From a virus (Duplodnaviria > Heunggongvirae > Uroviricota > Caudoviricetes), in IMG/VR virus record IMGVR_UViG_2609459830_000010: a DNA stretch of 9,648 bases; one strand, written 5' to 3'. Shown here one piece after another: positions 1 to 5,815 of this stretch (position 1 is the first letter of the stretch; each line of letters starts with the position of its first letter). The notes below the pieces were generated by a model. That model was not told the origin of the DNA, did no database searches, and saw only the letters and a list, made by a program, of their open reading frames with translations. The position numbers and the translations under genes were made by a program.

Positions 1-297
1 TTGTCTTCTCTGGTTATGGGCTGTACGCAACATAAAACAGATATGCCCCGACAATTGGTGAAGGCATTACCACAATATCCGGCCTATGCAGCGGCAAATT
101 ATATAAAGGGACGGGTTGATGTGAAGTTTGATATTGGTGCTGATGGTACTGTCACCCGAATTGAGTTTATCCGTTCAGAGCCGCACCATCTGTTTGATGA
201 GCAGGTTGTAAAGGCGATGGCAAAATGGCGATTTGAGAAGGACAGGCCGCGTAAAGGCGTGAAGAAAACGTTTATCTTTAGTCCTTCTGCACCCTGA
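1..297 (+). CDS. Lipoprotein consisting of a TonB C-terminal domain; 5-prime partial, true start lies upstream of the window
   Basis: Reading frame is open from base 1 and stops at 295-297. Window residues 4-8 are L-V-M-G-C, a lipobox-like motif, so the signal peptide must start upstream. The remainder (ALPQYPAYAAANYIKGRVDVKFDIGADGTVTRIEFIRSEPHHLFDEQVVKAMAKWRFEK) aligns by eye with the E. coli TonB C-terminal domain as recalled from memory (QPQYPARAQALRIEGQVKVKFDV..DGRV.NVQIL.AKPANMFEREVKNAMRRWRYE). Confidence 0.7.
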   Translation: MSSLVMGCTQHKTDMPRQLVKALPQYPAYAAANYIKGRVDVKFDIGADGTVTRIEFIRSEPHHLFDEQVVKAMAKWRFEKDRPRKGVKKTFIFSPSAP

Positions 298-428
298 TTA
301 TTTCATCAGAAATTAATTATCACTCTGTTGTTATTCTGTACATCCCGGCTGGGTAAGTCTTGTTCCGCCGGGTATGAAGATGAAATATTGTTGGAGGACA
401 GTGGGTACCTGCTCCTGTAACCGAACGT

Positions 429-629
429 TCATTTCTCGTTATTTGTCATGCTGGCCGTACGCAGATGCGTTGCATCTGTTGCCAGCCTTCTCCTGCAGGC
501 TTCAATAACCCACGCTGAAAAGTTACCGGACCCTTTATGCTCAAGGGCGATGTTGATCTGTTCAATCATCTGGTTTGGAAATCGGATGTTGCGGGTTGTT
601 GTTCTGCGGGGCCGGTTTTTCGATGACAT
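429..629 (-). CDS. Arc/MetJ-type ribbon-helix-helix DNA-binding protein (66 aa)
   Basis: Minus-strand ORF with ATG at 629-627 preceded by GAGGAAAG about 6 nt upstream on the minus strand. Basic N-terminal tail, then RNIRFP (beta strand), NQMIEQINIALEHKG (helix A), SGN turn, FSAWVIEACRRRL (helix B); this matches the P22 Arc pattern FNLRWPREVLDLVRKVAEENGRSVNSEIYQRVMESF as recalled. Only minus-strand gene in the window; AT-richer than the structural genes. Confidence 0.55.
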   Translation of the reverse strand: MSSKNRPRRTTTRNIRFPNQMIEQINIALEHKGSGNFSAWVIEACRRRLATDATHLRTASMTNNEK

Positions 630-670: not shown

Positions 671-1036
671 ATGGCTGTGCTTCGTACGTTACCGGGCAGA
701 ATCAAAACTCTGAACACCCGGCGGGTGAATGTCCTGAAGGGTGAACAGCGTCGTGTCAGTGGCAGTGCACGTGTTTCCCTCAAGCGTCATATCTGGCTCA
801 GGGATGCCGGGCAGTGCTGTCTCTGTGGTCGTGTGGTTGACCTCTGTGACAGTGAACTCGATCACCGAATTGCACTTCAGTTCGGTGGTGGTAATGAGGA
901 GACGAATCTCTGGACGCTCTGTACCGAATGCCATCGACAAAAGTCTGCTCGTGAAGCGGCGGGTGGTATGCCTGATCCGACGTTGCCTGAGCTTCCTGAT
1001 GGCACGCTCAGGGCCGACGGAATCACTGGCCTGTGA
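671..1036 (+). CDS. HNH endonuclease, phage packaging-associated type
   Basis: ATG at 671 with GAGGA about 8 nt upstream; stop TGA 1034-1036. Contains CCLCG...LDHRIALQFGGGNEETNLWTLCTECHRQK, i.e. Cys pairs flanking a His...Asn...His core typical of HNH nucleases. Sits immediately upstream of the terminase genes, the classic HK97-like arrangement. Confidence 0.85.
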   Translation: MAVLRTLPGRIKTLNTRRVNVLKGEQRRVSGSARVSLKRHIWLRDAGQCCLCGRVVDLCDSELDHRIALQFGGGNEETNLWTLCTECHRQKSAREAAGGMPDPTLPELPDGTLRADGITGL

Positions 1037-1128
1037 CCAGACCCGGGGGGGATCATCCGGCGAAAAAAAAAAGATCGCTTTGGACACCGCGCCCCCTCTC
1101 ACGCAGAGAAAAAATTCCCGTTTCAGGG

Positions 1129-1146
1129 CAGTTAACATGTTAACTG
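1129..1146. repeat. 18-bp perfect palindrome CAGTTAACATGTTAACTG
   Basis: Read directly from the sequence; the reverse complement is identical. It contains two inverted copies of the ATGTTAAC core. Confidence 0.9.
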
Positions 1147-1202
1147 GCTGCCCGGGCATTTTTGCGGTTTTTATCTTTATTATTCAGTTTGTTGTGCGGA
1201 AA

Positions 1203-1254
1203 AAATGTTAACAGGCTTTTTCAGCAAATGTTAACCAGGCAGCAGTTAACATTT
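1203..1254. repeat. Three copies of the 10-bp motif AAATGTTAAC: two direct (1203-1212, 1226-1235) and one inverted (1245-1254, GTTAACATTT)
   Basis: Read directly from the sequence. The direct copies are 23 bp apart; the inverted copy shares GCAGTTAACAT with the left arm of the upstream palindrome. Confidence 0.85.
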
Positions 1255-1326
1255 GCGGCATGAGACGCCGGGAAAAATGGGCTGAACCATACCCGGCTGA
1301 GTGCGTTCTGGACCCGGGAGGAGGCT

Positions 1327-1890
1327 GTGCTGACAACGCAAAAACGAAAATTTGCGCTGGCGCTCATGTCCGGGAAAAACAAAACAGCGTCAGCCATTGC
1401 CGCCGGTTATTCGGCGAAGACCGCCAGGGTTAAAGGCTCGCAGCTGGCAAAAGATCCGGAGGTGCTCGCGTTTATAGCCCGTAAACAGTGCGAAACGGTG
1501 GAGGTGGATGAGGTTCCTGTTTACCGGCAGAAAAAATCAGAGCAGGAGGATAAACCCCGTCGCCGTGAGGCGGCTGCAATACCACAGCCGGACGAAAACA
1601 ATCCGGAGATGCCACCGCCCGCGGTGATGTCTCATGGTATTGAATATATGGAGGATGGTCTTCCCGATCCGGTGAAAGCTATGGGGCAGATCCTGGTGGA
1701 AAACCTCAGCATTGATCCGAAACTGGCACTGGATGCGGCCTGGCGACTGGCGCAGTTCACACACCATAAAAAAGGCGATGCCGGTAAAAAATCGGCAAAA
1801 GGTGATGCCGCGAAAAAAGCGGCTAACCGTTTTGCGGTACCACCACCACCACGACTGGTGGTGAATAACGATAATGAGGGCAACGGATGA
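1327..1890 (+). CDS. terS: Terminase small subunit, P27 family
   Basis: GTG start at 1327 preceded by GGGAGGAGG; N-terminus MLTTQKRKFALALMSGKNKTASAIAAGYSAKTARVKGSQLAKDPEVLAFI matches the P27-family small-terminase N-terminal DNA-binding region as recalled. Charged, Lys-rich C-terminal tail. Stop overlaps the terL start (ATGA at 1887-1890). Confidence 0.85.
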   Translation: MLTTQKRKFALALMSGKNKTASAIAAGYSAKTARVKGSQLAKDPEVLAFIARKQCETVEVDEVPVYRQKKSEQEDKPRRREAAAIPQPDENNPEMPPPAVMSHGIEYMEDGLPDPVKAMGQILVENLSIDPKLALDAAWRLAQFTHHKKGDAGKKSAKGDAAKKAANRFAVPPPPRLVVNNDNEGNG

Positions 1891-3548
1891 TACCTGTATG
1901 GAGCACGGCCTGCCCGGACTGGGCAGAGCGCCTGAAAAAGGGGCTGTCGATTATTCCGGCTCCGATTTATCCGGACCAGGCTGCACATGCACTGGCGATT
2001 TTTAAACAACTGCGGATTGTGGATGCACCGGGTAGCCCGACATTCGGGGAGTCCTGTGCACCGTGGGTGTTTGACCTGGTGGCGGCCCTGTTTGGCTCCT
2101 ACGATGCGCAGACCGGTGTTCGCCATATCAAGGAAGTGTTTATCCTTATCCCCAAGAAAAACAGTAAGTCCACGCTGGCCGCGGGGATCATGATGACGGC
2201 GCTGTTACTGAACTGGCGGCAGGCGGCGGGCTACACCATTCTGGCCCCGACCGTGGAGGTGGCGGCTAACGCCTTCAACCCTGCCAGGGATATGGTACGA
2301 CGGGACGATGATCTGGATGACCTCTGTCAGGTGCAGACACATATCCGGACCATCACCCATCGGGTGACGGACACCACCCTGAAGGTGGTGGCAGCCGATC
2401 CGAATACGGTGTCCGGTATCAAGTCCGTGGGGACACTGATTGATGAACTGTGGCTGTTTGGCAAGCAGTACAAAGCGGAAGACATGCTACGTGAAGCCAT
2501 CGGCGGGCTTGCCTCCCGTCCGGAAGGGTTTGTGGTGTACACAACCACCCAGTCGAATGAACCGCCTGCCGGGGTGTTCAGACAGAAACTGCAGTACGCC
2601 CGGGATGTCCGTGACGGCAAAATTCATGATCCGCACTTTCTGCCGGTGATATTTGAACACCCTCCTGAAATGGTGGAAAGCGGGGCTCACCTGCAGATGG
2701 AAAACCTCGCCATGGTCAATCCGAATCTCGGTTATTCGGTGGATGAGGCCTTTCTGTACCGGGAGTACCGTAAAGCCCGGGAAGCCGGGGAAGAGACTTT
2801 CCGCGGTTTCATGTCAAAACACGCCAATGTGGAAATCGGTCTTGCCCTGCGTTCTGACCGCTGGGCGGGGGCGGATTTCTGGGAGCAGCAGGGCAGGCGC
2901 GTCAGCCTGGACGATATCCTGCAGCGCGCTGATGTGGTGACGGTGGGGATTGACGGCGGGGGCCTGGATGATCTGCTGGGAATGTACGTGACTGGCCGTG
3001 ACAGGGAAACCCGCGAATGGCTGGGCTGGGGCCATGCCTGGGTGCATGAAACCGCGGTGGTCAGACGGAAGAGTGAGGCATCCCGGTTTCAGGATTTTGT
3101 GGCCTGTGGAGACATGACGATTGTCCGTCGGGTCGGGGATGACACGGCGGAAGTGGCGGAGTATGTGCGTCGTATTCATGAGGCTGAGTTACTGGATCAT
3201 ATCGGTATTGACCCGTCAGGTGTGGGGCAGATTCTGGATTCACTGGCGGAAGCCGGGATCCCCGATGAGAGTGTGGTGGGGATAAGCCAGGGCTGGAAGC
3301 TGGGCGGGGCCATCAAAACCACCGAGCGCAAACTGGCTGAAGGGGTGCTGGTGCATGGTGATCAGCCCCTGATGGCCTGGTGTGTCGGCAATGCCCGGGT
3401 GGAGCCTAAAGGTAACGCCATTCTTATCACCAAACAGGCCAGTGGACGGGGAAAAATTGACCCGCTGATGGCGCTGTTCAATGCGGTCTCCCTGATGTCC
3501 CTTAACCCGGAACCGAAAAAGAAAGAATATGCGGTTTTTTTCATATAA
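1887..3548 (+). CDS. terL: Terminase large subunit (ATPase and nuclease)
   Basis: 553-aa ORF translationally coupled to terS. A P-loop-like segment (ILIPKKNSKSTLAAG) lies in the N-terminal half, and an acidic-residue-rich C-terminal half fits the nuclease domain. Size and position are typical of HK97-type TerL. Confidence 0.9.
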   Translation: MIPVWSTACPDWAERLKKGLSIIPAPIYPDQAAHALAIFKQLRIVDAPGSPTFGESCAPWVFDLVAALFGSYDAQTGVRHIKEVFILIPKKNSKSTLAAGIMMTALLLNWRQAAGYTILAPTVEVAANAFNPARDMVRRDDDLDDLCQVQTHIRTITHRVTDTTLKVVAADPNTVSGIKSVGTLIDELWLFGKQYKAEDMLREAIGGLASRPEGFVVYTTTQSNEPPAGVFRQKLQYARDVRDGKIHDPHFLPVIFEHPPEMVESGAHLQMENLAMVNPNLGYSVDEAFLYREYRKAREAGEETFRGFMSKHANVEIGLALRSDRWAGADFWEQQGRRVSLDDILQRADVVTVGIDGGGLDDLLGMYVTGRDRETREWLGWGHAWVHETAVVRRKSEASRFQDFVACGDMTIVRRVGDDTAEVAEYVRRIHEAELLDHIGIDPSGVGQILDSLAEAGIPDESVVGISQGWKLGGAIKTTERKLAEGVLVHGDQPLMAWCVGNARVEPKGNAILITKQASGRGKIDPLMALFNAVSLMSLNPEPKKKEYAVFFI

Positions 3549-3611: not shown

Positions 3612-5549
3612 GTGACTCTTAAACGGGCCTGTTCCCTGCTGACGGTGAAATCCTTCAGTGAGGATGAACGGGTGATCACCGGGATTGCGTCAACGCCTTC
3701 TCCGGATCGGGATGGTGACATCCTGGAGCCGGAGGGCGCGGAGTTTGGCAGTGCGATCCCGTTTCTCTGGCAGCATGACCATTCCCGCCCGGTGGGGCAG
3801 TGTACGGTGCGCCGGGTCAGCGAAGGGCTGGAAATCACGGCAACACTGGTGAAGCCCGTACCGGATATGCCGTCGCAACTGGCTGCCCGGCTGGATGAGG
3901 TCTGGGCGGCCATTAAGACCGGGCTGGTCAGGGGGCTGTCCGTGGGCTTCCGTCCCCATGAATACACCTTTCTGGACGGAGGCGGACTGCATTTTCTGCG
4001 CTGGGAACTGATGGAGGTGTCTGCCGTCACCGTGCCCGCGAATGCGGAATGCACCATCCGGACCATTAAATCTTACGACCGCCCGTTTTCTGCCGCGTCC
4101 GGCAACCGGAAACCGGTGGTGAAAATCGCATCTTCTGCCGGCGCTGCGGCACAGTCAATAACCTCTTTTCATAAGGAAAAGTCAGCAATGAATACTGGTG
4201 AACAGATTAAAAGTTTTGAAAACAAGCGTGCGGCGCTGGCAGCCTCCCTTGAGGAGATCATGAACAAAGCCGCAGAGGAAGGCCGCACACTGGATGTGGA
4301 AGAGGAAGAGCACTACGACAACACCGCAGCGGAAATCCGTCAGGTGGATGCGCACCTGAAGCGTCTGCGTGAACTGGAAACCAGTAAGGCCGCCACGGCA
4401 CAGCCGGTGAAACAGGCCGGTAACGGGAATGTGGCCACGGTGGCTTCAGCGCCGGTGATCCGTGTTGAGCAGAAACTGGAGAAGGGGATTGGTTTCGCCC
4501 GCTTTGCCAAATCACTGGCCGCGGCTAAAGGTGTCCGCTCTGAAGCCCTGGAAGTGGCCCGTCGTCAGTATCCGGATGACAGCCGTCTGCATCATGTCCT
4601 GAAATCGGCGGTGGGGGCAGGGACCACCACGGACCCGCAGTGGGCAGGCAGCCTGTCTGAATATCAGGAATATGCGCAGGACTTTATTGATTACCTGCGT
4701 CCGCAGACCATTATCGGGCGATTTGGTCAGGGCGGGATCCCTGCACTTCGTCAGGTGCCGTTCAATATCCGCGTGCATGCCCAGGTGTCCGGCGGTGCTG
4801 CCGGCTGGGTGGGTGAGGGTAAGGCCAGACCCCTGACGAAGTTTGATTTTGAATCCATCACCTTCAGTCATGCGAAAGTGTCGGCCATTGCGGTACTGAC
4901 GGAAGAATTGATCCGTTTTTCCAGTCCGGCTGCTGATGCACTGGTCCGTAATGCGCTGGCGGAAGCGGTGGTGGCGCGTCTGGACACAGACTTTGTGGAC
5001 CCGAAAAAAGCCGCAGTGGCAGATGTCTCCCCGGCGTCCATCACCCATGATGTGAAGGGCACGGCATCAACCGGTAACCCGGATGCGGATGCCGAGGCCG
5101 CGTTTGGCCAGTTTGTGGCAGCAAACCTGCAGCCCACCGGTGCGGTCTGGCTGATGTCCAGCACCAATGCCCTGGCACTGTCCATGCGTAAAAATGCGCT
5201 GGGTCAGAAGGAATACCCGGACATGACCCTGCTGGGTGGCTCCTTCCAGGGGCTGCCGGTGATTGTCTCCCAGTACGTGGGTGACCAGCTGGTGCTGGTG
5301 AATGCCCCGGATATTTATCTGGCGGATGACGGCGGTGTGGCAGTGGATATGTCCCGTGAAGCGTCACTGGAAATGCAGTCTGAGCCGACCGGCGACAGCA
5401 CCACACCGTCCCCGGTGGAGCTGGTTTCCATGTTCCAGACCGGCAGCGTGGCCATCCGTGCGGAGCGCTGGATCAACTGGCGTCGTCGCCGTACCGCGGC
5501 GGTGGCGGTGATCACCGGTGTGAACTACGGCAGTGCGTCCGGCGGCTGA
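3612..5549 (+). CDS. Prohead protease (S78/HK97-type) fused to scaffold-like linker and HK97-fold major capsid protein
   Basis: GTG at 3612 with AGGAGG 5 nt upstream. N-terminal ~190 aa (ITGIASTPSPDRDGDIL...FLWQHDHSRPVGQ...GLSVGFRPHE...LMEVSAVTVPANAEC) matches the HK97 prohead protease pattern. Next comes a charged, helical, coiled-coil-like segment (EQIKSFENKRAALAASLEEIMNKAAEEGRTLDVEEEEHYDNTAAEIRQVDAHLKRLRELE) resembling a delta/scaffold domain, then a ~400-aa capsid-like region (LRPQTIIGRFGQGG...VPFN...). All are in one frame with no stop. Confidence 0.85.
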   Translation: MTLKRACSLLTVKSFSEDERVITGIASTPSPDRDGDILEPEGAEFGSAIPFLWQHDHSRPVGQCTVRRVSEGLEITATLVKPVPDMPSQLAARLDEVWAAIKTGLVRGLSVGFRPHEYTFLDGGGLHFLRWELMEVSAVTVPANAECTIRTIKSYDRPFSAASGNRKPVVKIASSAGAAAQSITSFHKEKSAMNTGEQIKSFENKRAALAASLEEIMNKAAEEGRTLDVEEEEHYDNTAAEIRQVDAHLKRLRELETSKAATAQPVKQAGNGNVATVASAPVIRVEQKLEKGIGFARFAKSLAAAKGVRSEALEVARRQYPDDSRLHHVLKSAVGAGTTTDPQWAGSLSEYQEYAQDFIDYLRPQTIIGRFGQGGIPALRQVPFNIRVHAQVSGGAAGWVGEGKARPLTKFDFESITFSHAKVSAIAVLTEELIRFSSPAADALVRNALAEAVVARLDTDFVDPKKAAVADVSPASITHDVKGTASTGNPDADAEAAFGQFVAANLQPTGAVWLMSSTNALALSMRKNALGQKEYPDMTLLGGSFQGLPVIVSQYVGDQLVLVNAPDIYLADDGGVAVDMSREASLEMQSEPTGDSTTPSPVELVSMFQTGSVAIRAERWINWRRRRTAAVAVITGVNYGSASGG

Positions 5550-5593: not shown

Positions 5594-5815
5594 ATGGCAA
5601 AAATCCGATATCTGCAGGGCACGCATGATGCCCGGGCCGGGGATATCCGTGATGTGGCACAGCCGTGTGCGGAGGTGCTGGTTCGCCTGGGGAAGGCGGA
5701 GTACATCACAGCGCGACGTCCGGCAGGTCAGAAAAAGAAACGTGATGCGGAGCATGGCGAATGTGGAACCTTTTGCGGCGAACCCGAAAAAACCAGAAAT
5801 CAGGACGTGACGTAA
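5594..5815 (+). CDS. Hypothetical small protein (73 aa), uncertain
   Basis: ORF between the capsid stop and the portal gene, overlapping the annotated portal start by 55 nt in another frame. No convincing Shine-Dalgarno directly upstream; a purine-rich GAGGAGGGCGGGAGG lies about 25 nt upstream. The N-terminal part looks protein-like (MAKIRYLQGTHDARAGDIRDVAQPCAEVLVRLGKAEYI). Confidence 0.25.
   Translation: MAKIRYLQGTHDARAGDIRDVAQPCAEVLVRLGKAEYITARRPAGQKKKRDAEHGECGTFCGEPEKTRNQDVT

Follow-up and report, generated by a model that had tools for sequence, protein, structure and literature searches.

The left end of the 9,648-nt sequence analysed here (IMG/VR record IMGVR_UViG_2609459830_000010, Caudoviricetes; hereafter the window) raises the question of why a phage should carry a TonB C-terminal domain detached from the rest of TonB, and what such a protein would do in the bacterial envelope. 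The initial annotation, made without database searches, described a secreted lipoprotein composed of this domain and suggested that it might serve as a decoy for the TonB boxes of outer-membrane receptors.

Gene and coordinates

Frame 1 of the window is open at the left edge and terminates at the TGA in positions 295-297. Its translation, LSSLVMGCTQHKTDMPRQLVKALPQYPAYAAANYIKGRVDVKFDIGADGTVTRIEFIRSEPHHLFDEQVVKAMAKWRFEKDRPRKGVKKTFIFSPSAP*, covers all but the first ten codons of a 108-aa gene (codons 11-108 and the stop). Approximately 400 complete E. coli genomes contain a match spanning all of the leftmost 1200 bases, with 97.6% as the highest identity. The first ten codons, which lie beyond the window edge, were recovered from E. 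coli NZ_CP180607 (locus L001), in which the 294 coding bases are identical to those of the window. In that record the annotated start lies 30 nt upstream of the window (L001:7971-8297, a 327-nt CDS described as “TonB family protein,” WP_000828070.1). The coordinates 1-297 proposed at the outset are therefore retained, but translation begins at the ATG 30 nt to the left and not at the TTG in position 1. The full product, now with a complete signal peptide, consists of MKRNLPLIIL followed by the window translation, that is, MKRNLPLIILLSSLVMGCTQHKTDMPRQLVKALPQYPAYAAANYIKGRVDVKFDIGADGTVTRIEFIRSEPHHLFDEQVVKAMAKWRFEKDRPRKGVKKTFIFSPSAP. The features discussed below are collected in Table 1.

Table 1. 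Features of the TonB_C lipoprotein gene and its surroundings (window coordinates unless a locus is named)
Feature	Position	Strand	Basis
TonB_C lipoprotein gene, codons 11-108 and stop	1-297	+	identity to L001:8001-8294
Remainder of predicted signal peptide with lipobox L-V-M-G-C; Cys codon 22-24	1-24	+	lipobox rule
Short tether (TQHKTDM) and start of N-terminal segment, matching TonB 153-160	25-75	+	model pLDDT, dN/dS
TonB_C core (residues 24-91 of the window translation)	70-273	+	Pfam match, phmmer, AlphaFold2, Foldseek
3' part of the 648-bp cassette	298-474	.	similarity to gene-less relatives resumes at ~475, inside the DUF3950 ORF
DUF3950 (YlcI/YnfO) gene, convergent neighbour	429-629	-	PF13132, E=4e-20
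Start of packaging module: HNH endonuclease 671-1036, TerS 1327-1890, TerL 1887-3548	671-3548	+	
Chromosomal single-gene homologues (Klebsiella, Raoultella, Serratia, Erwinia)	L009:5995-6333, L013, L014:5986-6312, L016		

Signal peptide and predicted location

Residues 1-18 have the composition of a lipoprotein signal peptide, with a positively charged N-terminus and a hydrophobic core followed by L-V-M-G-C. The lipobox recognized in the initial annotation is upheld: MKRNLPLIILLSSLVMG with the cysteine that follows it fits both lipobox patterns applied, the predicted lipidated Cys is residue 18 (PROSITE PS51257-type rule), and this residue is invariant in a 16-member alignment of the family. 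At the +2 position the protein has Thr; throughout the family, including clades as distant as 33% identity, the residue is T, S, A, V or F and in no case Asp. According to the Lol sorting rule, lipoproteins lacking Asp at +2 are delivered into the outer membrane's inner leaflet, and sorting to that location is predicted here on this basis. In an AlphaFold2 model 8-10 residues separate the lipid anchor from the first ordered residues, with pLDDT values below 50 at mature residues 1-4 and the first strand at mature residues 11-13.

The TonB C-terminal domain

Profile searches bear out the presence of a TonB C-terminal domain. The product scored 56.5 bits against Pfam TonB_C [PF03544; cut-off 24.6, E=3.9e-15] and 56.5 against TIGR01352 [tonB_Cterm; cut-off 27.1], while phmmer analysis of the PDB aligned residues 26-104 with the C-terminal domains of E. 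coli and Salmonella TonB (E~3e-16), in the case of E. coli TonB with residues 153-231 and no gaps. Its closest counterparts in sequence are TonB domains of enterobacteria, 37-42% identical to it. The AlphaFold2 model of the mature protein, based upon a 42-sequence alignment, has a mean pLDDT of 91.8 and the fold order alpha1-beta1-beta2-alpha2-beta3. When it was compared with solved TonB domains using Foldseek, a TM score of 0.87 and rmsd values of 1.0-1.3 Å to 1u07, 2gsk_B and 2grx_C were obtained, the BtuB-bound (2gsk_B) and FhuA-bound (2grx_C) forms of TonB lying within 1.0-1.1 Å. The mature domain is also basic, as is that of TonB (pI 9.9 versus 10.4).

The full-length TonB equivalogs NF008080-NF008084 were missed by a wide margin (50-73 bits against cut-offs of 265-448), and these profiles were matched only from position ~152 to the end, their C-terminal third. 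A reading as a TonB orthologue was rejected on these grounds and because the protein has neither a membrane anchor at its N-terminus nor a proline-rich spacer; the absence of both agrees with the initial description of the domain as stand-alone. Judged by these comparisons, the product is a lipoprotein consisting of a complete, stand-alone TonB C-terminal domain.

In the phmmer alignment residue i corresponds to TonB residue i+127. Y163-P164 of TonB are thus represented by Y36-P37, F180 by F53, G186 by G59, F202 by F75, W213 by W86, Y215 by F88 and F230 by F103, all of them positions which we take to be functionally important. Among the important residues checked all are kept except Q160 and R166, which contact the transporters in the complexes. 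Q160 is replaced by Leu here and is variable in the family; R166 is Tyr in most members and never Arg. Since neither is conserved, the interface with transporters may differ from that of TonB. Beyond beta3 the tail reads S-P-S-A-P and has four residues fewer than that of TonB; the family possesses signatures of its own, S-E-P-x-H-L-F-D and Y-P-x-Y-A.

Locus, cassette and selection

The gene order is holin, lysozyme, Rz/Rz1, a 340-bp gap, the TonB_C gene, a DUF3950 gene on the minus strand, HNH, TerS and TerL. The gene is accordingly situated between the lysis genes and HNH-TerS-TerL, at the edge of the packaging module as originally stated. That annotation had also likened the position to a lambdoid moron slot holding bor or cor-type genes. 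The first half of this comparison is sound, for bor/iss is the immediate upstream neighbour of the TonB_C gene in both phage 21 and CFT073; the second is a loose analogy, Cor-type genes being usually located near tail genes.

On either side of the gene, L001 and Stx1a phage 10314 are collinear at 92-94% identity; where L001 has 648 bp (about -173 to 474 in window coordinates), the Stx1a phage has a 246-bp AT-rich filler. The gene is thus a genuine present/absent moron cassette.

Two clades are found in E. coli, clade A, which includes the window, and clade B, of the phage 21/CFT073/ST131 type, with 71% protein identity between them. The dN/dS ratio between the clades is 0.14 overall. It is lowest in the core (0.06), intermediate in beta3 plus the tail (0.13) and highest in the region of the tether and Q160 (0.52), which has changed fastest. 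By this measure the gene is under purifying selection. Copies are present in 1616 of 5426 complete E. coli genomes (~30%), approximately 414 belonging to clade A and 1200 to clade B. All but a handful (1612/1616) are of full length, and every E. coli copy found falls within the prophage clades.

Relatives in phages and chromosomes

Related genes specifying the same architecture occur in Klebsiella prophages (40% identity), and a Salmonella prophage clade (44% identity) is represented on at least 1000 contigs. Chromosomal relatives were found in Klebsiella, Raoultella, Serratia, Erwinia, Rahnella, Gibbsiella and Pantoea. All five phage clades examined have the gene in the same slot, after holin/endolysin/Rz and before the terminase genes, with lysis and packaging modules that differ from clade to clade. 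Of the chromosomal copies, those of Klebsiella and Raoultella adjoin lacZ-lacI and a DUF1440 gene, and that of Serratia is flanked by a CxxCxxCC gene on one side and by dsbB-nhaB on the other; none of the copies examined in these three genera adjoins a transporter gene.

The accompanying genes in clade B are of note with respect to metal uptake. In phage 21 sitB-D follow the tail fibre genes in the stretch examined (L019:12968-15001), and the CFT073 prophage carries iss, sitABCD and a porin gene, an ompC paralogue (L020:17708-21151 and L005:1354-4520). SitABCD is a TonB-independent Fe/Mn importer.

Two further observations concern the family at large. The Klebsiella chromosomal gene is located between lacI and the DUF1440 (yagU-like) gene, and in Klebsiella phage ST13-OXA48phi12.4 a DUF1440 gene is found 3 kb upstream of the TonB_C gene (L003:277-903). 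Stand-alone TonB_C proteins of 105-130 aa were also recovered from other bacteria (P0102, P0113, P0150, P0165 and P0167); their signal peptides look like ones lacking a lipobox, and they would be soluble periplasmic versions.

Transcriptional control

Upstream regions were scanned for graded matches to the 19-bp Fur consensus, with 2620 control windows taken from the same loci, 3.5% of which reach 13/19, 0.8% reach 14 and 0.27% reach 15. The best sites lie 5-40 nt upstream of the start codon, and in the chromosomal and Salmonella-phage members they overlap the promoter. Scores are highest in the chromosomal members (14-17/19, with 15-17/19 in the homologues of Klebsiella, Raoultella, Serratia and Erwinia listed in Table 1) and the Salmonella phages (15-16/19, including perfect TGATAATnATTATCA palindromes), followed by the Klebsiella phages (12-14/19), clade A (13/19 at -16) and clade B (10/19). 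No canonical Fur box with three or fewer mismatches was found in L001. An extended -10 sequence, TGTTAGAAT, precedes the ATG by some 30 nt and has been conserved in other clades as well, and the -10 TGTTAG(T/A)AT with the site following it can be aligned among the Klebsiella chromosomal, Salmonella phage and clade A copies. In clade A the site after the -10 has become a palindrome, AGAATAAGaCTTATTCT. Promoter-like matches are no commoner than in shuffled sequence, and no intrinsic terminator was found for the gene. All of the promoter and Fur elements of the window's own gene lie to the left of the window.

Based upon these alignments we conclude that the family was, in all likelihood, ancestrally Fur-repressed and that the cassette moved together with its promoter. 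Fur control of clade A is possible, and that of clade B looks to have been lost. Ancestral regulation of this type points to expression in the lysogen during iron starvation. STM1586, the most Fur-derepressed gene of S. Typhimurium, was weighed as a homologue and then dropped as probably being yncE.

Possible function

From the properties described above we infer sorting to the outer membrane, binding of TonB boxes, an inhibitory outcome and Fur control of clade A, and we tentatively favour, at a probability of roughly 0.4, the proposal that the protein damps TonB-dependent import by occupying TonB boxes unproductively. The gene would be a lysogenic-conversion moron, the product of which is exported by Sec and lipidated at Cys18. 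Its tether of 8-10 residues would hold the domain at the level at which outer-membrane transporters expose their TonB boxes and at which those of TonB-dependent colicins would arrive. A TonB box would be added as a beta-strand to the beta3 edge, as in TonB; in a domain with no link to the ExbB-ExbD motor this binding would be unproductive and would compete with scarce host TonB. TonB-dependent import would be damped or blocked, leading to resistance to, or exclusion of, TonB-dependent phages, colicins and microcins, at the price of some loss of siderophore and B12 uptake. The ancestral switch-on by Fur derepression would coincide with the time when receptors are most abundant.

Such a decoy is favoured by the similarity of the fold to transporter-bound TonB (2gsk_B, 2grx_C) and by retention of most of the key residues of TonB. 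The invariant lipobox Cys, the lack of Asp at +2 and the low dN/dS, above all in the core, point the same way, as do the present/absent nature of the cassette, its recurrence in one post-lysis slot in five phage clades and the Fur boxes of its relatives. Clade B travels with sitABCD, and a TonB-independent importer could offset the cost. The phage lipoproteins Llp and Cor inactivate FhuA and offer a conceptual precedent. A precedent for inhibition itself comes from engineered periplasmic fragments of TonB, which on overexpression inhibit TBDT iron import in E. coli (Howard et al. 2001, as cited in PMC9841981).

Several points tell against the decoy. Fur-induced chromosomal homologues in Klebsiella, Raoultella, Serratia and Erwinia are hard to square with inhibition of the cell's own iron uptake. 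During iron starvation the transporters greatly outnumber TonB, so that titration of TonB boxes would require high expression. R166 is lost, mostly to Tyr, and Q160 is unconserved. The Fur box is degraded in clade A and lost in clade B, no terminator was found, and the promoter-like matches stand at the level of shuffled sequence.

A purely anti-phage reading explains poorly the ordinary chromosomal members found in other Enterobacterales. We entertain, with more reserve than the decoy itself, a wider proposal, that of a Fur-controlled “anti-TonB” shield native to the Enterobacterales, a TonB C-terminal domain anchored in the outer membrane which captures TonB boxes or TonB. It would have been taken up by prophages of E. 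coli, Salmonella and Klebsiella together with its promoter and Fur box. Lysogens would be protected from colicins, microcins and phages that depend on TonB at the very time when the receptors are exposed through lack of iron, and SitABCD would supply metal in a TonB-independent manner in ExPEC. This is conceivable, though on balance doubtful.

The opposite sign of effect is rather unlikely but has to be considered seriously. The protein might be a Fur-induced accessory which aids one or more TonB-dependent transporters by holding or presenting TonB boxes, by stabilising plugs, or by binding an imported substrate within the periplasm as the FusB C-terminal domain binds ferredoxin; prophages would then carry the gene as a fitness factor beside sitABCD. 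The strong Fur boxes at single-gene chromosomal loci in several genera are what one would expect of such a helper, as are the ordinary chromosomal contexts (lacZ-lacI with DUF1440; dsbB with nhaB) and co-carriage with sitABCD and iss in the phage-21-type prophage, and a TonB-like C-terminal domain has been solved with its substrate protein (9hi3, FusB with ferredoxin). On the other side, no transporter gene lies beside any copy examined, and energy cannot be transduced by a domain that is unconnected to the motor. Genomes of the E. coli K-12 type, moreover, do without the gene, given that all E. coli copies found belong to prophage clades.

Two readings we hold to be improbable to about the same degree. 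In the first, the domain would pair with the C-terminal domain of host TonB and hold it at the outer membrane. The target would be the few hundred TonB molecules rather than the commoner transporters, a stoichiometry in favour of this reading, and the phenotype would be the same as that of a decoy. Its closest matches are indeed enterobacterial TonB domains at 37-42% identity. Aromatic residues reportedly mediate contacts between TonB C-terminal domains in vivo, as seen by disulfide trapping in the Postle laboratory, and the residues concerned are all kept (F75, W86, F88 and F103). Crystal dimers of TonB fragments, on the other hand, vary with the length of the construct (the title of 1u07 refers to large changes between fragments), and the TonB tail, which takes part in some dimers, is represented here by the shorter tail ending in S-P-S-A-P. 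The inhibition by periplasmic fragments described in PMC9841981 fits a trap for TonB and a decoy for TonB boxes alike.

In the second, the domain would have been re-used for peptidoglycan or some other envelope protein and would have no part in TonB-box recognition. Non-conservation of R166 and Q160 and the family's own two signatures are consistent with a new partner. Yet Fur control places the family within the physiology of iron and TonB, its conserved alignment columns coincide with those of TonB, and the nearest relatives are true TonB domains from the same hosts.

A role as lysis accessory or outer-membrane spanin is very improbable and is effectively refuted. It is suggested by a match to PHROG 1267 (E=2.6e-42), labelled “Rz-like spanin,” and by the constant position of the gene after the lysis cassette. 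The phage, however, has its own Rz with a typical embedded Rz1 (VSAC lipobox, proline-rich; L001:7137-7322), and phage 21 has annotated i- and o-spanins besides the TonB_C gene. The product is a 90-residue globular domain rather than a short proline-rich peptide, closely related phages lack the gene, and its separate Fur-type promoter would make sense only in a living lysogen, which argues against a lysis function.

PHROG 1267 is essentially the TonB_C lipoprotein family, the profile being covered end to end. Because the phage has its own Rz/Rz1 and the spanins of phage 21 are additional, the label does not fit; it is probably a positional mis-annotation, one which will propagate.

Least credible of all is a functionless, decaying fragment of a captured tonB, which might be proposed since only the C-terminal third of TonB is present and an old annotation reads “partial tonB-like membrane protein,” but which is refuted by the dN/dS of 0.14, the 1612 full-length copies among 1616 in E. 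coli, and a signal peptide and lipobox that have been acquired and are conserved down to 33% identity.

Comparison with known systems

The TonB C-terminal domain of E. coli and Salmonella (1u07, 2gsk_B, 2grx_C and 8rd6) has the same fold, with the YP motif and aromatic residues in common at 37-42% identity. Unlike TonB, the present protein has a lipoprotein signal and possesses neither membrane anchor, proline-rich rod nor ExbB-ExbD coupling; its tail is shorter by four residues and ends in SPSAP, and R166 and Q160 are represented by Tyr and Leu. FusB, HasB and Vibrio TonB2 are TonB_C domains which have diverged for particular partners, FusB binding its substrate directly, and they too retain the membrane anchor and motor coupling that are missing here.

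Llp of T5 and Cor of phi80 and N15 are likewise small phage lipoproteins, which from the outer membrane act on FhuA from the periplasmic side and bring about superinfection exclusion. They are directed at a single receptor, whereas many could be targets of a TonB domain; functionally the protein would be a variant of this receptor-blocking lipoprotein theme. No sequence family common to it and Llp/Cor was found, its only PHROG matches being 1267 and 34172. Lambda Bor/Iss is a lipoprotein moron that occupies this slot too, between the lysis genes and cos, adjacent to the TonB_C gene in phage 21 and CFT073, but is an unrelated protein encoded in the opposite orientation and has a serum-resistance function.

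The engineered TonB fragments (Howard, Herrmann, Stratilo and Braun 2001, J Bacteriol 183:5885; cited in PMC9841981) are likewise periplasmic TonB domains without the energy-coupling N-terminus. They are soluble laboratory constructs, whereas the present gene is natural and prophage-mobile, its product has a predicted outer-membrane tether, and its relatives have Fur boxes.

Searches of BFVD viral structures gave no match at E<0.001, and the PADLOC defence models gave none to the TonB_C lipoprotein. Existing annotations read [quoted passage not shown] “TonB family protein” and, in phage 21, “TonB C-terminal domain protein.” No functional study was found in full-text literature searches, in keeping with the initial remark that this was not recognised as a characterised phage-encoded mechanism; in the paper on T11SS cargo, TonB C-terminal domains figure solely in the form of TonB genes that co-occur. 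As far as we could find, there is no earlier description of the link to Fur, of the relatives on chromosomes or of repeated prophage capture.

Many phages, colicins, microcins and siderophore-antibiotic conjugates of the cefiderocol type enter the cell through TonB-dependent transporters. If the protein truly interferes with TonB coupling it would represent a new type of prophage-conferred resistance, both mobile and iron-regulated. The E. coli genomes with the gene include those with the CFT073/ST131-type prophage (iss, sitABCD) and several Stx-phage lineages, and phage therapy, bacteriocin competition in the gut and the uptake of Trojan-horse antibiotics could be affected. Should it prove to be a helper instead, it would be an unrecognised component of the Ton system in iron uptake.

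Other features of the region

Several other features of the region deserve mention. The right border of the cassette (~474/475) falls within the convergent DUF3950 ORF, and the C-terminal third of that protein has therefore been swapped with the cassette. Between Rz and a conserved block, L001 contains a gene for a 74-aa hypothetical protein (L001:7408-7632) which is absent from Stx1a_10314 and constitutes a second small present/absent cassette; PADLOC gave no family match for it. The conserved block itself, directly upstream of the TonB_C cassette, comprises ~180 bp of non-coding sequence (L001:7648-7826, corresponding to L002:3700-3830 in phage 21). It is 79-96% conserved in 398 phage records, including lambda variants, exceeding the neighbouring genes in this respect. 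No Rfam family was found in the upstream or gene region, this block included. A 45-aa upstream ORF annotated in phage 21 is probably not coding, as it is not conserved in clade A.

Further into the window, the portal protein is specified by an ORF of 454 aa (5761-7125, +), which overlaps by 4 nt an ORF of 353 aa (7122-8183, +) with only a weak match to CBM_5_12. In L001 the equivalents of these two ORFs have been merged by PGAP into one “frameshifted” portal pseudogene, and ~162 extra nt are found there somewhere between position 9200 and the head-tail connector gene. A 645-aa ORF (3612-5549, +) contains both prohead protease (S78) and HK97-type capsid domains, and precedes the portal gene instead of following it.
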